A stretch of 28,513 nucleotides of DNA, from assembly GCA_963770835.1 (NCBI GenBank), contig CAVYRH010000015.1, positions 1-28,513 on the forward strand, in the 5' to 3' direction. A program made the position numbers and the translations under genes. Every line of letters starts with the position of its first letter. Positions within the stretch are counted from its first letter, which is position 1. Shown in pieces: positions 1-23,938 of this stretch. The notes under the pieces were generated by a model. The model was not told the origin of the DNA and searched no databases. It was given only the letters and a program-made list of their open reading frames with translations. The stretch is from an uncultured Pseudomonadota bacterium (GTDB lineage Bacteria; Oederibacteriota; Muellerivitia; Muellerivitales; Muellerivitaceae).

Positions 1-36
1 TTGTGTAAAGCACGACTCCACCGCAGTTTTCCCGCA

Positions 37-87
37 GTAGAAGTCATTAGCCAATGAAATTGGCGGTTTTGGGAGGACTCCATCCCC
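37..87 (-). promoter_or_regulatory. Fluoride riboswitch (crcB motif) aptamer, followed by an overlapping expression-platform hairpin (~14-45)
   Basis: Minus strand reads GGGGATGGAGTCCTCCCAAAACCGCCAATTTCATTGGCTAATGACTTCTAC, matching the crcB pattern GGnGAUGG-GUUCnCC..AACCGC..GCUAAUGAC..CUAC. A TATAAT box lies upstream at 113-108. GACTTCTACTGCGG pairs with CTGCGGTGGAGTC downstream. Confidence 0.85.
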
Positions 88-215
88 TGAAAATGTTCGC
101 TAAAGGCATTATAGGGCTTCAAAAATATAAGCAAAGCCAATTCACTGCCGATAGCTGGATAACCTGCTTAGCGGGCTTCTTGCTATGAAAAGGTTATTAA
201 AGAAAGGAAATTCTT

Positions 216-11458: not shown

Positions 11459-11526
11459 ATTGCGTTGCACACTATCCTTTTTGCGACAGGCATGTGCAGG
11501 TTTTCATAACGGTACCGTAAATTTAT

Positions 11527-12708
11527 TTAACGCTTTCCCTCAACTGGTTTTTCCCATTTCACAAGTCGGCCAAATCCAATGCCTTCCAGCTGATAAATGG
11601 TTCCCGTTTTCAGGTTTATGTCGTTCGGATAAAAATCGAATTTGGTCAGTAGCCGGAATTTTGAATTGAATTTATATAACCGATAAAGCACCCAAACAGG
11701 GTGTTCTCCTGCTAGTGGCACCAATTCATACACAGCATAGATGTCACCAAAACTATCTATATTCATAACATACTCAAAATCAAAACCATCTATTCTCCGA
11801 GGTAACCAGTTGCCATTTTCATCCATTTCGTATTGAGTCGCTCTGTTGTCCGTCAATTGGTATTTCAAATTCTCCAAAAATATTTTTTGGTCGATTTTGT
11901 TTTCATCCGCACTTGGAAGCCTATAAAATATTTTTCCAGTTTTTACCGCATAGATGACGCCATTAGAAAAGCGTAATACTCCATCTTTATAAAAATTCCA
12001 TTTTCGGAAATCCGGTCGACCCATTAAATTGCCATTAGAATCGTAAACCCAAGAAATGGATGGACCATAGTCACTGTAGATACAGACATCACCTTGCTCA
12101 TCTACCAACAAGGCGTTTTGTTGTTCGTTGTCTTTGGGGATTTCCTTAATAATTTTTCCACTCTTGTCGAATACCACCACAGCATGTTGGAAAGTCATAT
12201 ATATATTCTCTTGATCGTCCACTCGACAAACTGGTTTCGAAGCATCTCCATATTTTCCGCTTAACTCCGAGGGTATTGTAAACATCTCCGTCCGTTTATA
12301 TTTCTCCGGTACTTCGGCGCTCGACAATCCCTTTTCAATCCGTGGATGCTGTTTAAAAAAAGTTTCAGCCTTATCTGACAGTGAAACCTCGGCATTCACG
12401 GTTCCATTTTTTACTTTTAAATGATGAGGGACATGTTTAAGAGAGTTAGTTGGCGTAGGAGTTACGCTTAACTCAACTTTGGCTTGTTGAGTCGCTATGG
12501 CTGAAGGGCTTGATGGCGTGGCCTCTTTCCATCCAGGCAAACCCGCATAACTAACATTCATTGAAAGCATCACAACGAACAAAAGTGTCAGGCCAAAATT
12601 TATTTTTTTTTGTTTTAAAAATTTTAGAATTTGCCAAACCAAATCAACTGATCTCAAAAATGAACCCTTCGCCCGTGCTTTGTTCGAAGAATAATTCTCA
12701 TACTTCAT
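11527..12708 (-). CDS. Hypothetical membrane-anchored/secreted protein, possibly beta-propeller (NHL-like); fills giant spacer 3
   Basis: ATG 12708 with a GAGGTG RBS; hydrophobic segment; repeats such as VDDQENIY, VDEQGDVCI and IDSFGDIY. Confidence 0.75.
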   Translation of the reverse strand: MKYENYSSNKARAKGSFLRSVDLVWQILKFLKQKKINFGLTLLFVVMLSMNVSYAGLPGWKEATPSSPSAIATQQAKVELSVTPTPTNSLKHVPHHLKVKNGTVNAEVSLSDKAETFFKQHPRIEKGLSSAEVPEKYKRTEMFTIPSELSGKYGDASKPVCRVDDQENIYMTFQHAVVVFDKSGKIIKEIPKDNEQQNALLVDEQGDVCIYSDYGPSISWVYDSNGNLMGRPDFRKWNFYKDGVLRFSNGVIYAVKTGKIFYRLPSADENKIDQKIFLENLKYQLTDNRATQYEMDENGNWLPRRIDGFDFEYVMNIDSFGDIYAVYELVPLAGEHPVWVLYRLYKFNSKFRLLTKFDFYPNDINLKTGTIYQLEGIGFGRLVKWEKPVEGKR

Positions 12709-12772
12709 CTCGCACCTCGTGAAACAGGGTTGCACACTATCCTTTTTGCGACAGGCATGTGCAGGTTTTTAA

Positions 12773-13117
12773 CTATTCCAATAAAAGAATTTTAAGATTT
12801 TCCATCAACTTCGCCTTATGGATTGAGTTTAACTCCCCCAAATGCTTGACGAAGCGACGGTTATCAATGGCCCGGATTTGGTCGACCAAAATATCGGAAT
12901 CCTTTTTGAGCCCGCTGGCCTTGGGGGAAAGGTGAACCCTTAATATCTCCGATCCGTGAATCACGTTGGTGCTGATGGGGCAGACAATGGTGCTGGGGTG
13001 CAGGCTGTCGTTTAAGAGATTGGTTTGAAGGACGACGATAGGCCTCGTTTTGCCCGGTTCGGTTCCAAAGCGGGGGCTTAGATCGGCCAGATAAATATTA
13101 AATTTTCTGATTTTCAT
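12773..13117 (-). CDS. mazF: PemK/MazF family type II toxin
   Basis: IYLADLSPRFGTEPGKTRPIVVLQ...SDILVDQIRAIDNRR. Confidence 0.9.
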   Translation of the reverse strand: MKIRKFNIYLADLSPRFGTEPGKTRPIVVLQTNLLNDSLHPSTIVCPISTNVIHGSEILRVHLSPKASGLKKDSDILVDQIRAIDNRRFVKHLGELNSIHKAKLMENLKILLLE

Positions 13118-13353
13118 TCAATGGTTGCTTCTTCGAGCTTTTCCATCTCGCTCAGGATTTCCATGGAATTCTTACGGGTCAGCAGGGATTCCTTTTGCAG
13201 TTTTTGACGAAGCCCTTTGCGCCGGTTGAACGCGTTGTAAAAATCCAACGCCTCGTTGATGTAGGCGTTTCGGGGCATATGAAGCCGTTTGGTCTGGGCC
13301 TCCACGCCCTCGAAAATTTCTCCTTTGATTTTAAGCGACAGAACCTTGGTCAT
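13114..13353 (-). CDS. Ribbon-helix-helix antitoxin, translationally coupled to the MazF toxin
   Basis: 79 aa; KVLSLKI...MPRNAYINEALDFY RHH pattern; 4-nt overlap with the toxin gene. Confidence 0.8.
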   Translation of the reverse strand: MTKVLSLKIKGEIFEGVEAQTKRLHMPRNAYINEALDFYNAFNRRKGLRQKLQKESLLTRKNSMEILSEMEKLEEATIE

Positions 13354-13363
13354 TTTCAGCTCC

Positions 13364-13398
13364 TTTAAAGGTATATACTAATTGTATATACTTTTAAA
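13364..13398. promoter_or_regulatory. Inverted-repeat operator upstream of the mazEF-like operon
   Basis: TTTAAAGGTATATAC-TAATT-GTATATACTTTTAAA (15-bp arms, 1 mismatch). Confidence 0.6.
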
Positions 13399-13430
13399 AT
13401 AAAAAGAAATGACTTTTCGTTCAATCTATC

Positions 13431-13458
13431 TGTCCACGCCAGGTCCCCGTCGTGGACA
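13431..13458. repeat. 28-bp cassette-boundary site, copy 7 (inside giant spacer 2)
   Basis: tgtccacgcca-ggtccc-cgtcgtggaca. Confidence 0.88.
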
Positions 13459-13532
13459 ACCAGTTGCTATTTAAAGACTAAATTCATTTGATCAAAACCA
13501 AAATGTGCCTGTCTCAATAAAAATGGCCCTTT

Positions 13533-14681
13533 TTATATTTCTGACACTTTTTTGATCTTTCCAGTGTAACCATCGATGATCAATCTCAAAGACTTACCAA
13601 CTTTATTCGTAATATCTACTACCCAATCTCTTCCATCAATCTTTTCATCAAACGAGGAGTCTTCATTATTTTTTTTGTAATCGTAGGCGGTAAAAAAAGC
13701 CCGGTCCCGTGATATCATCCCGCCCTTCGCTCTGCTTTTATCCGCTTTATACCAATCAATCCACCGCTGGACGGGCGTTTTCATGTCGCAGATATGAATG
13801 ATGTCATTTTCATAATAATAATCGACCTTTTCTCCAAGGCTGGAATAATCACAACCCGTTAAGTTCTCCAAGGCAAAAGCAAATCCACCGTTTACAACGG
13901 AATTCGATATACCGTTGATTTGGAACCCATAATCTCCCCAATGTTTGGGAAGGAATAGTTCCGGCTCGACGACGACTTTGTCCTTTTTGGCCTCTAAAAT
14001 ATTTTTGATCAGTTGGATATTGAATTCTTCATTCTCATGAAAATGGCAATTCAAGGGCATTTCTTGGTACTCTTTGGGCAATTCTTGATGGACTGGTCTG
14101 TTTTGAAGGTTGTAACGTTGAAATGCCTTGTCAAAAGCCCAGGCGTTTGGCGTACCATTTTCTAGGACGGAAAATAATACTGGCACATCACTTGGCCAAG
14201 GATCACGGATAAGTAGGCTTAAGATGAGGTCTTGGGTTTCCGTATAGTGCAAGAGGGAAAGAAGGGCATCACGGGCTTTTGTATTTTCGAAATCCTCGTT
14301 AAATCGGCCTGCAATGCGGCTATCGATACCAATCAAATGGAGCGTAAATATGGCCCCCCTTCTCCCTTGGGCCGAGTGGGTCCCTTTAAATAAATCTAAT
14401 AAGTGCTGGATGGCTTTTTCTTTATAGGCAGCTATGGAATACATATCATCGGTATACCCAATCCAATAGGCCTTCCCTGTTTCCAATAAATCCCAATTGC
14501 CTTCTAATCTGTGAATTAATATTTTTAAGGGCGTCTTTTTATCTTGTGTGACTTTGGCGCCTCCGCCCTCGGCAGCACGCCAAGTGCTATCCCCATATGA
14601 ATCAACACCCAATTTATGTTGAGCGTTGGTAAACTGAGGCGCACTTAGAATTAAAAACCATAAAAAGATAATTTTTTTCAA
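13533..14681 (-). CDS. Secreted hypothetical protein with a possible C-terminal PepSY-like segment (cassette)
   Basis: Signal peptide MKKIIFLWFLILS; C-terminal WVVDI...LIIDGYTGKI. Confidence 0.75.
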   Translation of the reverse strand: MKKIIFLWFLILSAPQFTNAQHKLGVDSYGDSTWRAAEGGGAKVTQDKKTPLKILIHRLEGNWDLLETGKAYWIGYTDDMYSIAAYKEKAIQHLLDLFKGTHSAQGRRGAIFTLHLIGIDSRIAGRFNEDFENTKARDALLSLLHYTETQDLILSLLIRDPWPSDVPVLFSVLENGTPNAWAFDKAFQRYNLQNRPVHQELPKEYQEMPLNCHFHENEEFNIQLIKNILEAKKDKVVVEPELFLPKHWGDYGFQINGISNSVVNGGFAFALENLTGCDYSSLGEKVDYYYENDIIHICDMKTPVQRWIDWYKADKSRAKGGMISRDRAFFTAYDYKKNNEDSSFDEKIDGRDWVVDITNKVGKSLRLIIDGYTGKIKKVSEI

Positions 14682-14726
14682 TATGTGAGCAACTCCTGAT
14701 TCAGAATGGTCAATGAGTTAATCCAC

Positions 14727-14754
14727 TGTCCAATCCGGATCCCCGTCGTGGACA
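14727..14754. repeat. 28-bp cassette-boundary site, copy 8 (inside giant spacer 2)
   Basis: tgtccaatccg-gatccc-cgtcgtggaca. Confidence 0.85.
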
Positions 14755-14773
14755 CCTAAATCCGCCGCTTTGT

Positions 14774-15044
14774 TTATTCCACCCGCAAAAGGTAAAGGCT
14801 GATAAGTCCCAAAATGATCCCAACTACACGATGGGCGTTGATCGGTTCCTTAAAAAGAATAAACCCACCCAATATCGTCAACATGGTGCTCCCGATTAAA
14901 ACAAAGGAACCAGCCACCGAAAGCTGGCCTCCCCTTGAAAAAACGATAAAAAACCCAATCGAGCCCGCAGCGGCGCAAAAACCGGCGGCCAATGAAAAAG
15001 ACATTCCTAGGGCCGTCGCTGACTCTACCGACCCGTTAAACTTT
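14774..15044 (-). pseudogene. 5'-truncated EamA/DMT family transporter
   Basis: LGGFILFKEPINAHRVVGIILGLISLYLL is a DMT C-terminal signature. The frame stays open (KFNGSVESATALGMSF) right up to the CRISPR repeat at 15045, with no native N-terminus. Confidence 0.75.
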
Positions 15045-15081
15045 GTTGCACACTATCCTTTTTGCGACAGGCATGTGCAGG

Positions 15082-15754
15082 CTTGGACAGGGAACAGGCG
15101 GCCCTCCACGCCGCCGAGGATAATTTCGGCCCCTACCACCCCAATACCGTGCTCGTTCTCAACGACCTTGCCGCCATTTACTGGACGATGGGGCGTTATG
15201 AGGATTCGGAAGAAACTTATAAATGGGCCTTGGCGGTCCGCGAAAAAACATTGGGCAAGGACGACCTCCTGGTGGCCGACTCCTTAAACAACTTGGCCGC
15301 CCTTTATGAGGATTTGGGACGGGACCCGGAAGCCAAAATGGCCGAGGAAAGGGCTATTCGAATAGTCGAAAAGAAGGAGGGGGGTCTGACACCAGACTGT
15401 GGCCTTGAAATGCTTATCCTGGGAAAGATCCAAATAAACCTTCAGGATAATTTGGGAGCCGAAAAGACCCTCGACCAAGCCGTTTCTCTGGGCGCCAAAA
15501 CACAAAACAACAACCCGGGTCAATATTGTGAATCTTTAGTGGCCCTAGCCCAGGCCAACCAAGCCTCAGGCCATCTTCAAATTGCTGAAACCCATTTGAA
15601 ACAATACCTGGATTCTTGTGGGAAGCAATATAAGGCCGACAGTGTGGAAGTGGCCGATTCCCTGGAATGCTTGGGGGATTTTTACAAAGCGGAACACCTC
15701 AAGAAAAAGAGCCGGGAATATTACGAATCCGCCCTCAAGATTTACAGGAAATTT
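15082..15754 (+). pseudogene. Internal fragment of a tetratricopeptide-repeat (TPR_10/TPR_12-like) gene, equal to giant spacer 1
   Basis: FGPYHPNTVLVLNDLAAIY..GRYEDSEETYKWALAVREKTLGKDDLLVADSLNNLA. The frame is open across the whole spacer, with no native start or stop, and is cut at both ends by repeats. Confidence 0.85.
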
Positions 15755-15813
15755 GTTGCACACTATCCTTTTTGCGACAGGCATGTGCAGGAGCCTGCAA
15801 TTATTGGTGTTTT

Positions 15814-16149
15814 TCACCGTTCCGCCGAATTCGGCGTGATTTGGATAAGTTCAAACGCAGTTTCAATGTCGACATCATCTTTCTTAGAACTAAGCGTACC
15901 ACCGAAAACCGAATCTTCAAAGCACGACCGACAGAGCGTACTGATAAAAAACTTTTCGGTCTTCTTTGCGAAAGCCCCCTTGAATTTATTCTCGAGTTTT
16001 TCCCGTTCTTTTGAATACAATTTTCCGATATACATATTCCGGAAAACCGGCTTGAGACCATAATTCTTGCACCACAGAACCGCCTTGTCCCGATGCCGCC
16101 AGTCGCGCGTTTCCCACGATACTAGGGTGATGGCATTGAAATTGTTCAT
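15814..16149 (-). CDS. cas2: Divergent CRISPR-associated Cas2-like protein
   Basis: 111 aa, overlapping the cas1 stop by 4 nt. Ferredoxin-like pattern LVSWET..R..KAVLWCKNYGLKPVFRNMYIG..LCRSC. The canonical YDI motif is absent. Confidence 0.75.
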   Translation of the reverse strand: MNNFNAITLVSWETRDWRHRDKAVLWCKNYGLKPVFRNMYIGKLYSKEREKLENKFKGAFAKKTEKFFISTLCRSCFEDSVFGGTLSSKKDDVDIETAFELIQITPNSAER

Positions 16150-17156
16150 GATATCGAAAAAAGTTTTTCCGCACGAAACGGGTTGTACTTGTCCTCCTTT
16201 TCGACAAAGTGACGTGCCAACGCCCTAATCTGGTTATCTATGATCTGCTTAAGAGTATATTGTTTCCCCCGCCATGCCGTCGTTTCATTCAACCGCCTCA
16301 TGATCGCCCCCACCACGACGCTTTTTCCCTCAGGCGATAACAGATATTGCCCAACCGCGGTTTTTTCAAAATATTTCCGTTGGCTCAGTTTCTTTTCTAT
16401 GAAAAGCGGGAAAAGCACCGAGTCGACGATTGGTACGCGGAATTCTTCGACAAGATCGAGAACGAGGGCAGGCTTACCATAGCGTTCACTGTGGTAGAGG
16501 CCGAGATATGGATCAAGACCGACGTAAAGGCATGCCCGTTCGACTTCATTGTAAAGGATGCCGTAACCATAATTCAGTACGCTGTTAAACTGGTCCCTGC
16601 CTTGTGGTTTTCGGCCCGGGAATCTATAGAATTTTTTTAACCCGCTGAAATATTTGTCCGCGATGTATCCTTCCGTACCAAGGAGTTGCTCCTTGCCTTT
16701 CTCCGAACACGGGACATTGTCCAAGACATCAAAAAGGGTCTGCGCTTGTAAGAGTTCGGTCCCCACATCCTTTTTATATCGGTACGCGAGATATCGGAGT
16801 AGATCGAGCTGATTAGCGCATTTGCCCCGCACTAATTCTTTCGCGATTTTGAACGATCGCTCAAGCGAAGTTGACGCTTCCAGTTGCGCTTTACGAAGAC
16901 TCGCCAGCCCTTTTGGTTCGCTTGAAAATAGTCTTCCGATGGGCTTGCCAAAAGAACCGAGATAGACGATATCAACATCGTGCTCAATCGCGAGCTGAAC
17001 CGCGTGAGTCGTGAGCGAGGCCGGCCGCAGTATGACTATTTTCTCCAGTCTATGGATGGGGTATTCTTTTTTCTCTTTAACTTTCGGAAAAGAAAGGACG
17101 ATGCGCTCGCCATTTACGCCGATCTTGGTACCGTAAGTATCAATAAGCAAGTCCAT
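16146..17156 (-). CDS. cas1: CRISPR-associated endonuclease/integrase Cas1
   Basis: LLGTEG, DQFNSVLNYGYGILY, GLDPYLGLYH and LVLDLVEEFR; the catalytic E/H/D-E residues are intact. Start MDLLID at 17156 after a GGGGG RBS (17186 is also possible). Confidence 0.95.
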   Translation of the reverse strand: MDLLIDTYGTKIGVNGERIVLSFPKVKEKKEYPIHRLEKIVILRPASLTTHAVQLAIEHDVDIVYLGSFGKPIGRLFSSEPKGLASLRKAQLEASTSLERSFKIAKELVRGKCANQLDLLRYLAYRYKKDVGTELLQAQTLFDVLDNVPCSEKGKEQLLGTEGYIADKYFSGLKKFYRFPGRKPQGRDQFNSVLNYGYGILYNEVERACLYVGLDPYLGLYHSERYGKPALVLDLVEEFRVPIVDSVLFPLFIEKKLSQRKYFEKTAVGQYLLSPEGKSVVVGAIMRRLNETTAWRGKQYTLKQIIDNQIRALARHFVEKEDKYNPFRAEKLFSIS

Positions 17157-17230
17157 GTGGTCTGCCCCCCAAATTTTGTAAACCATCTTTATGCTGAAAG
17201 TGCCTGAATACCATTATCCATTATTTTCGT

Positions 17231-17258
17231 TGTTCACGAAGGGTCCCCGTCGTGGACA
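17231..17258. repeat. 28-bp cassette-boundary site, copy 9 (directly upstream of cas1)
   Basis: tgttcacgaag-ggtccc-cgtcgtggaca. Confidence 0.88.
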
Positions 17259-21268: not shown

Positions 21269-21333
21269 GTCCACAGTTGGCAGTTGACGGCTGACAGAGA
21301 AACCCGAAAACTTGGCGGTATTTTATAGCCAAG
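21269..21333. repeat. 65-bp non-coding direct repeat, copy A
   Basis: gtccacagttggcagttgacggctgacagagaaacccgaaaacttggcggtattttatagccaag; 3 mismatches to 23748-23812. Confidence 0.85.
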
Positions 21334-21429
21334 CCGGGCGATTGGGGATGCATTTTCAATCAATGAATAAACGGGGATTCCCTGGCTTTGGAAACCTCAA
21401 GACGGTCCTGAGAGCGGTTGTTTTTAAAA

Positions 21430-22452
21430 TCACCAGGCCGTCGCCGCCACCGCGCCGTTAAAAGCAACCGCCGCAAACACCCCATTCCCATAGGCCACGG
21501 ATTCCCAGTTCTGTGAATTGGGCAGGCTGCGCCCCGTCCAATTGATCCCGTCCGGGGATGTCGCCGCCACCGCGCTGGGGCCGTCGGCAACTGCCGTAAA
21601 ATAGCCATTCCCGTAGGTCACTGACTGCCAGTCCTGTACGCTGGGGAGGGTTTGGGCCGTCCAGGTGATCCCATCCGGGGATGTCGCCGCCACCGAGCTC
21701 AAAAAAGCAACCGCCACAAATACCCCATTCCCATAGGCCACTGACTCCCATACCCTTACGCTGGGGAGGGTTTGGGCCGTCCAGGTGATCCCGTCCGGGG
21801 ATGTCGCCGCCACCGTATCCGGGCCACCGAGGCTGCTCGTGCTCACCGCCACAAAAACCCCATTCCCGTAGGCCACGGAGTTCCAATCCTGCGAACTGGG
21901 GAGGGTGCGGGACGTCCAGGTGACCCCGTCCGGGGAGGACGCCGCCACATTGTTACTCTGTGTAACCGTCACAAACACCCCATTGAGGCCGTAGGTCACG
22001 GAACACCAGACCTGTATGCTGGGGAGGGTTTGGGCCGTCCAGGTGATCCCATCCGGGGATGTCGCCGCCACCGAGCTGGGGCCGCCGGCAACCGCCACAA
22101 AAACCCCATTCCCATAGGCCACGGAATACCAACTCTGCGAACTGGGGAGGGTGCGGGCCGTCCAGGTGACCCCGTCCGGGGATGTCGCCGCCACATTGCT
22201 ACTCCGGGCAACCGCCACGAACACCCCATTCCCGTAAGTCACTGATGACCATTCCTGTGAACTGGGGAGGGCGCGTGAGGTCCATGTCGCTCCCGGCCAA
22301 GGGGTGATCGTGGGCGAAGGGGTAATGGTTGCCGTTGCCGCCACCTGCACCACCGTCACCGGCCCCAGGGCCGTAGGGCCCAGGTTTTTCCCGCAGGCCA
22401 GCGGTAAGAGGGCGAGCCAGGCCAAAATCAAAACAGCCAAGAACTTATTCAT
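21430..22452 (-). CDS. Lipoprotein with tandem Asp-box/BNR-like beta-propeller repeats (paralog 2)
   Basis: ATG 22452 with an AAGGAGG RBS; lipobox LPLAC; ~7 repeats of WTA.TLPS.Q.W.SV.YGNGVFVAVA..AATSPDG. Confidence 0.85.
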   Translation of the reverse strand: MNKFLAVLILAWLALLPLACGKNLGPTALGPVTVVQVAATATITPSPTITPWPGATWTSRALPSSQEWSSVTYGNGVFVAVARSSNVAATSPDGVTWTARTLPSSQSWYSVAYGNGVFVAVAGGPSSVAATSPDGITWTAQTLPSIQVWCSVTYGLNGVFVTVTQSNNVAASSPDGVTWTSRTLPSSQDWNSVAYGNGVFVAVSTSSLGGPDTVAATSPDGITWTAQTLPSVRVWESVAYGNGVFVAVAFLSSVAATSPDGITWTAQTLPSVQDWQSVTYGNGYFTAVADGPSAVAATSPDGINWTGRSLPNSQNWESVAYGNGVFAAVAFNGAVAATAW

Positions 22453-22504
22453 GCTCCACTCCTCCTTAATATCGGCTGAAGGCAAGTCCGCGCGAACAAC
22501 CGGA

Positions 22505-23506
22505 TTACCAGGATGTCGCCGCCACCGCGCTTCCACTTGGCCCACTCGCAAGCGCCACAAACCAACCATTCCCGTAAGCCAACGATTGCCAATACTGCGA
22601 ACTGGGGAGGGCGCGGGCCGTCCAATCAATCCCGTTCGGTGAGGTCGCCGCCACCGCGCTGGGCCCAGCCGCAACTGCCACAAACACGCCGTTCCCGTAG
22701 GTCACGGATTGCCAGTACTGTGAACTGGGGAGGCTACAGGCCGTCCAATTGATCCCGTCCGGGGATGTCGCCGCTACGGCGCTGGGTCCAGTGGCAATCG
22801 CCACAAACACGCCATTCCCGTAGGTCACTGAAATCAAATTCTGTGAACTGGGGAGGGTGCGGGCCGTCCAGGTGATCCCGTCCGGCGACGTCGCCGCCGC
22901 CGTACCACCCGTAGCAACCGCCGCAAACACGCCATTCCCGTAGGCCACTGACTGCCAGGGACGTGAACTGGGAAGGGTTTGGGCCGTCCAGGTGACCCCG
23001 TCCGGCGAGGTCGCCGCCACCGTGCTCAGTTCAGCAACCGCCACAAACAGTCCATCCGCGCTGGTCACGCATATCCAATCCTGTGAGCTGGGAAGGGTTT
23101 GTTGCGTCCAATGGATCCCGTCCGGTGATGTCGCCGCCACCGCGCTCCCAAAAGCAACCGCCACAAACTCCCCATTCCCGTAGGTCACGGAGTACCATTC
23201 CTGTGTACTGGGGAGGGTTTGGGCCGTCCAGGTGACCCCGTCCGGCGAGGTCGCCGCCGCCGTACCAAAAGAAACCGCCACAAACACACCATTCCCGTAG
23301 GCCACTGAATTCCAAGCATGTGTACTGGGGAGGGTTTGGGCCGTCCAGGTCTGCCCGGGTACGGGGGTGATGGTCGGGCTCGCCGTGATCGTGGAGGTGG
23401 GCGCCAACACCGTCACCGGCCCCAGGGCCGCGGGGCTCATGTTTTTCCCGCAGGCCAGCGGCAGCGACGCGGCAAAGATGATTAAAACCGCCGATATTTT
23501 TTGCAT
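22505..23506 (-). CDS. Lipoprotein with tandem Asp-box/BNR-like beta-propeller repeats (paralog 1)
   Basis: Lipobox LPLAC; same repeat unit as 21430-22452. Confidence 0.85.
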   Translation of the reverse strand: MQKISAVLIIFAASLPLACGKNMSPAALGPVTVLAPTSTITASPTITPVPGQTWTAQTLPSTHAWNSVAYGNGVFVAVSFGTAAATSPDGVTWTAQTLPSTQEWYSVTYGNGEFVAVAFGSAVAATSPDGIHWTQQTLPSSQDWICVTSADGLFVAVAELSTVAATSPDGVTWTAQTLPSSRPWQSVAYGNGVFAAVATGGTAAATSPDGITWTARTLPSSQNLISVTYGNGVFVAIATGPSAVAATSPDGINWTACSLPSSQYWQSVTYGNGVFVAVAAGPSAVAATSPNGIDWTARALPSSQYWQSLAYGNGWFVALASGPSGSAVAATSW

Positions 23507-23747: not shown

Positions 23748-23812
23748 GTCCACAGTTGGCGGTTGACGGCTGACAGGGAAACCCGAAAACTTGGCGGTAT
23801 TTTATACCCAAG
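23748..23812. repeat. 65-bp non-coding direct repeat, copy B
   Basis: gtccacagttggcggttgacggctgacagggaaacccgaaaacttggcggtattttatacccaag. Confidence 0.85.
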
Positions 23813-23938
23813 GTAGGCAGATTGGGATAGCTAAGATTTGCCGGGCTAAGGGCGCCTTTTCAATCGATGGATTGGGGGGGATTTTGTGGTGTTGGAACAC
23901 AAAAGGCGGCCCTGACCACTGTAAATAGGATTTCGACT

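Follow-up and report, generated by a model that had tools for sequence, protein, structure and literature searches.

How did an internal slice of a TPR gene come to lie antisense to cas1, cut flush at both ends by identical 37-nt repeats, beside a cas1-cas2 pair? The sequence comparisons presented here make it likely that the slice entered as one long fragment, both ends of which would have been joined by Cas1-Cas2 to the leader-proximal repeat without a length ruler, in a recent capture by a locus that may serve to sample genes. The stretch analysed (the window, 28,513 nt) is the whole of contig G000:C15, where G000 denotes the host assembly (4.58 Mb, 96% complete, 3.65% contamination), whose closest named relatives belong to candidate division FCPU426. 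The features needed for the argument are the following:

11464-11500, minus strand: fourth copy of the 37-nt repeat, identical
11501-12728, minus strand: insert 3 (1228 nt), a single ORF, apparently complete and of unknown family, with the same orientation as cas1
12729-12765, minus strand: third copy of the 37-nt repeat, identical
12766-15044, minus strand: insert 2 (2279 nt), a cassette-array piece with two palindromic sites
15045-15081, minus strand: second copy of the 37-nt repeat, identical
15082-15754, plus strand: insert 1 (673 nt), internal TPR-gene slice corresponding to residues 55-278 of donor P0123, antisense to cas1
15755-15791, minus strand: leader-proximal copy of the 37-nt repeat, exact
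15792-15813, minus strand: 22-nt gap from the cas2 stop to the first repeat, likely the leader end, identical at all four cas2-linked repeats of G000
15814-16149, minus strand: divergent cas2, 111 aa (PADLOC Cas2b, E=1.9e-7; fold matches Cas2 structures)
16146-17186, minus strand: cas1, 346 aa, for which homologs point to Met11 as the start; E172, H232 and E247 retained
17231-17258, no strand assigned: 28-nt palindromic site of the kind that separates gene cassettes, at the start of the cas1-cas2-repeat unit

Besides these four exact repeat copies (starts 11464, 12729, 15045 and 15755), which enclose inserts of 1228, 2279 and 673 nt, no further near copies were found in the window. Insert 1 had been called the only plus-strand coding DNA there, and gene calling agrees: among 21 genes called with a genome-trained codon model, which overlooked some window genes such as cas2, 20 lie on the minus strand and the sole plus-strand call is the TPR insert. 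Plus-strand ORFs made up 2/28 of those given to Pfam, and the remaining plus-strand ORFs, near 340-920, fall inside an ORF-less group II intron on the minus strand. This intron (215-1044; Rfam RF00029 and RF02003) abuts a palindromic site, has about ten near-identical copies in G000 and presumably resembles introns that target cassette sites. A fluoride riboswitch (31-96, minus strand) lies at the contig end, and positions 21430-23506 hold two paralogous ORFs of ~40-aa repeats with EPTP-like Pfam hits; before each of them lies one of two related non-coding blocks (21269-21411 and 23748-23915) that recur on contig C11. Three RNA runs hold <10% of words. Elsewhere in the assembly, at G000:C3:97310-98334, about 1 kb of homopolymer T and then A is likely a sequencing or assembly artefact.

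The window as a whole is an integron-like array with unusually short sites. Its 28-nt near-perfect palindrome (hairpin z=-6.1) occurs at 17 sites between 1016 and 27891, and about 90 times in G000, separating co-oriented gene cassettes. Pieces of the array match in many genomes of the family, and G000 contains 12 candidate recombinases.

The enzyme encoded next to the repeats is a Cas1, scoring 251 bits against the TIGR00287 cut-off of 71.7. It falls under every subtype cut-off in NCBIfam, the best PADLOC subtype models being Cas1b and Cas2b for the pair, and the closest solved Cas1 by sequence is 4n06 (E=1e-34), with 7cr6 also matching. Alignment to 4n06 places E172, H232 and E247 at what we take to be the positions of the Cas1 metal-binding residues, and the active site appears intact. 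The 111-aa partner gave no Pfam or NCBIfam Cas2 match; in a predicted model with a pLDDT of 75, Cas2 structures were the top fold matches, and its assignment as Cas2 is thus weak by profile and clear by predicted fold. A first model from the single sequence was discarded (pLDDT 37). No RAMP (PF03787), Cas9 (TIGR01865), Cas3 (TIGR01587) above cut-off or Cas12f/TnpB-type protein (PF07282) was found in G000 (96% complete), in a search of these four families; nor was an ordinary CRISPR array found in this assembly. The first insert differs behind every leader copy, and no trailer series shared across strains was found by which inserts could be ordered.

Insert 1 had been described in the first-pass annotation as one open TPR frame without native start or stop, flush between repeats; the coordinates proved exact and the frame continuous. 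It runs from 15083 to 15754 on the plus strand, open over 224 codons (chance ~1e-4 across six frames), and matches Pfam TPR_12 with E=1.7e-25. Its first codon, TTG, corresponds to donor Leu55 and its last to Phe278, and base 15082 is the third base of donor Ala54. The frame is also open through both flanking repeats (ORF 15062-16063, plus strand) and runs antisense over cas2. A chimeric read-through protein of 326 aa (P0124) is on record from one contig only and is likely a gene-calling artefact. Trinucleotide composition, at the 47th percentile, gives no sign of foreign origin. That the repeat had itself inserted into an intact gene was excluded, as excision leaves stops on both sides and restores no frame.

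The intact source gene was sought, as the earlier annotation had proposed, in the host genome and in environmental data, and it turned up only in the latter. A protein search of soil sequence data recovered P0123, a 385-aa TPR protein encoded on a 5,508-nt contig and in line in length with other family members (370-427 aa). Insert 1 agrees with its residues 55-278 at 223/224 positions; it has 54 further N-terminal residues, among them an apparent signal peptide, and 107 further C-terminal ones. Contigs from runs X1 and X3, which belong to two studies, match the DNA exactly from base 15082 onwards, over 496 and 85 nt, and upstream of this base they encode the donor's preceding residues, not the repeat. 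The cuts fall within ...VKTGSFEDA/LDREQ... and ...YRKF/SEMACT.... Repeat-like sequence at these breakpoints, which would have spoken for a pre-existing site, is absent from P0123 and from the X1 and X3 contigs, and no repeat translation in any frame resembles either donor flank. Since the repeat's edge base differs from the donor's next base at both breaks (G vs C on one side; G vs a Ser codon on the 3' side, known from protein only), the joints are flush and show no microhomology.

Where the donor came from can be narrowed to two possibilities. In G000 the best blastn hit reached 73% over 86 nt, the upstream donor motif had 0 matches, and the TPR paralogs are 35-36% identical to the donor; across 30 other genomes of the family the best copy showed 40% identity. 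No relative was found in metagenome contigs, and the DNA of the donor's 5' flank is known over 30 nt. In a tree of 30 homologs, the donor clusters with the G067 and G014 copies (support 95/89, each on a long branch), and two G000 paralogs stand apart from it. Given its absence from G000, the copies of at most 40% identity in the family and its placement in the tree, the donor is either a family gene of another lineage or an accessory gene that the G000 assembly lacks. No palindromic site was found within the loci of the nearest genome relatives, and the idea that the donor clade consists of palindrome-bounded cassette genes was dropped. The suggestion that insert 1 is the newest of the series fits its position next to the 22-nt gap behind cas2 and its 0 differences from donor DNA over 496 nt.

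Insert 1 is one of many such segments. The repeat is present in 7/99 genomes of the phylum, all of one family (six assemblies besides G000), with 100 copies in the regions analysed and 110 in the survey listing; G000 itself has 27 near copies and four cas1 loci. Across the seven related genomes, 66 distinct repeat-bounded segments measure 30-14,100 nt, 59 of them at least 200 nt. Ordinary spacer lengths also occur, as locus L068 (G067:C12:144389-145681) carries 30- and 38-nt segments among kilobase ones in one array. At least two repeats separated by long inserts were seen at 7/15 related Cas1 loci (L005, L007, L010, L012, L014, L016 and L017), a count limited to repeats within the flank. The order cas1-cas2-short gap-repeat is constant in distant hosts, and from FCPU426 to Patescibacteria a change in Cas1 goes with a change in the repeat sequence; at L010 and L012 this layout is present and the palindromic site was not found. 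In G031, a one-contig genome of 876 kb, there is a single cas1-linked array of 8 repeats, and one 386-nt insert is 99% identical to a distant site on the same chromosome. Elsewhere repeats are scattered as several arrays, part of them without cas genes. Orphan arrays also sit inside cassette arrays at L070:3917-4020 and L087:2775-2850, with the first repeat 11-40 nt past a palindromic site and cas1-cas2 missing.

The breakpoints of these segments look arbitrary. By the codon model, and as a lower bound, 37/118 segment ends carry a cut gene. Three segments come from one source region and have different ends, an IS-like element was cut at two positions, and one insert consists of a 3' piece of cas1; the flanks to the left and right of a repeat derive from unrelated places. 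In the window, insert 2 begins with a cut small gene, followed by a 382-aa ORF, a putative antitoxin and a whole MazF-like gene that stops 7 nt short of the repeat, where a normal array has a palindromic site. A 7.5-kb segment at G000:C16:21562-29110 contains an antisense run of housekeeping-like genes (apparently tgt/queA-like, by eye) and is cut at both ends; its joint with the repeat is seen in run X2. The segment at G000:C3:60758-61838 consists of a 3' cas1 fragment, cas2 and leader, followed by a further array, and appears to be a self-capture; the cas1 upstream of it, at C3:47275, has a stop codon. Thus, the view that capture ignores gene boundaries is borne out by the donor, by the IS-like element and by cas1, all cut mid-gene. 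The accompanying view that this is not site-specific cassette exchange fares equally well: the donor carries no repeat at either break, its cuts lie mid-gene and other inserts show differing breakpoints on one source, and exchange at pre-existing sites is therefore excluded for insert 1.

If breakpoints are arbitrary with respect to genes, the segment ends nevertheless have something in common. At position 3 inward from the repeat, G occurs at 9/184 segment ends, against ~23% expected. The deficit is seen at starts (6/99 vs a background of 24%, P=5e-6) and at ends (3/85 vs 22%, P=3e-6), with P values uncorrected for the 12 positions examined, a start set that includes sequence after last repeats and an end set that excludes leader-side junctions. 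Positions 3-5 are A/T-rich at both ends. The position-3 trend is the same in 7/7 genomes, which are related and not fully independent in this count, although every junction sequence is distinct. In insert 1, the leader end fits the bias well and the other end only in its non-G position 3. Because both ends share one bias, the same protein probably grips both, as two Cas1 active sites would. On the other hand, the PAM-like motif that we had been led to look for beside the sources of the inserts did not appear: in 24 flanks of sources at least 95% identical, no base at -1 to -6 exceeded 9/24. As these outside flanks have no common motif, we infer that no PAM is read during capture.

Orientation calls for a more divided answer. 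Capture itself may ignore it, both orientations being found, yet the retained segments are strongly skewed: among the 59 of at least 200 nt, 38 run mainly with cas1 and 9 mainly against it (at least one of the latter calls being doubtful), and 12 are without a call. The co-oriented share is thus 38/47 (P=2.5e-5). The antisense share is 3/8 at leader-proximal positions and 6/39 elsewhere, a difference that is not significant (P=0.17). The two older inserts of the window hold whole co-oriented genes, and cassette arrays, as well as the cas locus, contain or adjoin many of the traced sources. Both selection after random capture and a donor pool of co-oriented cassette arrays fit the 38:9 bias. 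Capture from RNA, an idea raised by the sense bias and the group II introns, was set aside: segments carry genes on both strands and their ends share the bias.

We propose that each Cas1 active site would take one end of a broken DNA molecule, preferably an end rich in A/T and poor in G at positions 3-5, and that each of the two ends would be joined to one edge of the leader-proximal repeat while the intervening DNA loops out. As when a CRISPR spacer is acquired, the 37-nt repeat would be duplicated on integration, but with no length ruler; in this manner the neighbouring Cas1-Cas2 could have pasted the middle of the TPR gene as a single double-stranded fragment. Capture would be possible in both orientations, after which selection or a bias in the donor pool would leave mostly co-oriented, gene-bearing inserts, with insert 1, truncated and antisense, as a recent capture awaiting purge. 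The locus is likely a gene-sampling device rather than an immune memory. Growth of an array one insert at a time does not cover everything: one inverted repeat (C3:400869) and segments that end exactly at a second cas2-leader need recapture or rearrangement. Inverted repeat pairs were seen at G000:C3:400723-400905 (109 nt apart) and L081:2253-2470 (~144 nt apart).

The same Cas1-Cas2 might be the agent in a less purposeful way, as a length-limited integrase whose half-site or two-molecule joins at chromosome breaks are completed by repair, so that long segments are by-products, the scars of a run-down module without a gene-sampling role. The inverted repeat, the cas-less arrays, the cas1 copy with a stop and the cas1 fragment found as an insert would all suit this, as would the numerous traced sources in or near cassette arrays and the cas locus, and insert 1 is a functionless slice. 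Against it, both ends of insert 1 map collinearly to a single donor gene and thus stem from one molecule; one bias is common to both segment ends; and the layout is kept in distant hosts, with whole genes in the older window inserts. We regard this account as improbable, if clearly less so than the two that follow.

Alternatively, the 37-nt repeat could be a recombination site or mobile mini-element of the cassette-array recombinase, with cas1-cas2 as a passenger. The unit does sit in an integron-like array (17 palindromic sites across the window), the repeat forms a weak hairpin (z=-2.0) and G000 has 12 tyrosine-recombinase matches; the donor breaks without any repeat, the unrelated origins of the repeat flanks, the same layout at L010 and L012, where the palindrome was not found, and a repeat that tracks the Cas1 sequence largely refute this for insert 1 and leave it very little probability. 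Hardly more credible is that insert 1 is an assembly chimera. No contig in X1, X2, X3 or X8 spans the repeat-TPR junction, the 3' junction is uncovered in these runs and none of the four runs covers the whole window, and the assembly contains the 1-kb homopolymer (C3:97310-98334) and 3.65% contamination. Yet a repeat-driven misjoin cannot place insert 1 to the base at both ends when the donor has no repeat, the independent run X2 shows a different G000 repeat-insert junction (C16:21525), and the repeat recurs in six other assemblies of the family. Two-ended, ruler-free integration by Cas1-Cas2 accordingly remains our preferred reading of the locus. A wider proposal, which we put forward tentatively and at slightly less than an even chance, is that this ruler-free and PAM-free Cas1-Cas2 integrase could be the integron's fragment-capturing counterpart: it would take any broken DNA from 30 nt to 14 kb, with the A/T-rich end signature as its sole choice, to a fixed site, travel as a cassette in integron-like arrays and supply genes that selection sorts, insert 1 being a raw capture from another lineage before sorting.

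Among known systems, the CRISPR adaptation module is the closest in its parts: a Cas1 above the TIGR00287 cut-off with its catalytic residues, an adjacent gene with a Cas2 fold, identical 37-nt direct repeats ending in AAC, a different insert behind each leader copy, and inserts that are cut regardless of genes and are in some cases self-derived. Cas1-Cas2 is known for measuring short spacers of ~35 bases, whereas inserts here span 30-14,100 nt, not a narrow length, and near-constant short spacers are not what these arrays contain. Only 22 nt separate cas2 from the repeat, no PAM appears in 24 flanks, no effector was found among the families searched, Cas1 stays below subtype cut-offs and the arrays are scattered. 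The system thus has the parts and working of CRISPR adaptation minus short spacers and PAM, and it is not an ordinary CRISPR array.

Integrons share with it the nature of a platform that gathers foreign genes serially and mostly co-oriented, and the cas1-cas2 unit itself lies in a cassette-like array. Integron cassettes (IntI, attI/attC) are whole genes with their own recombination site; insert 1, in contrast, comes from the middle of a gene, and its donor reads on in frame past both cuts with no such site.

Casposases resemble the present system in that a Cas1-family enzyme joins both ends of long DNA to a preferred site with target duplication, and PMC6977970 reports tolerance for varied and random substrates. 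Casposons are discrete elements bounded by terminal inverted repeats; they encode a casposase and polB of their own and come with a duplication of ~14 bp. The present system differs in its arbitrary cargo, its 37-nt duplication, the presence of Cas2 and an enzyme encoded outside the cargo. At insert 1 the two ends are dissimilar, and there is no polB among the window's Pfam hits. In the Discussion of PMC6977970, Cas2 is proposed to direct a short DNA piece between active sites; Cas2 is nonetheless present here.

A literature search, largely limited to papers outside the subscription journals, found no description of Cas1-Cas2 arrays with kilobase inserts. New here are a traced donor with both breakpoints, the lack of a PAM, a symmetric end signature and a bias in orientation; the last two yield predictions that are testable by expression of two genes. 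If the proposed reading is true, horizontal gene capture would gain a new route, in which kilobase DNA enters one site without a PAM or a site carried by the donor. The enzyme would then represent a living intermediate between casposase and CRISPR integrase, and a candidate tool for inserting DNA site-specifically or for recording in DNA.
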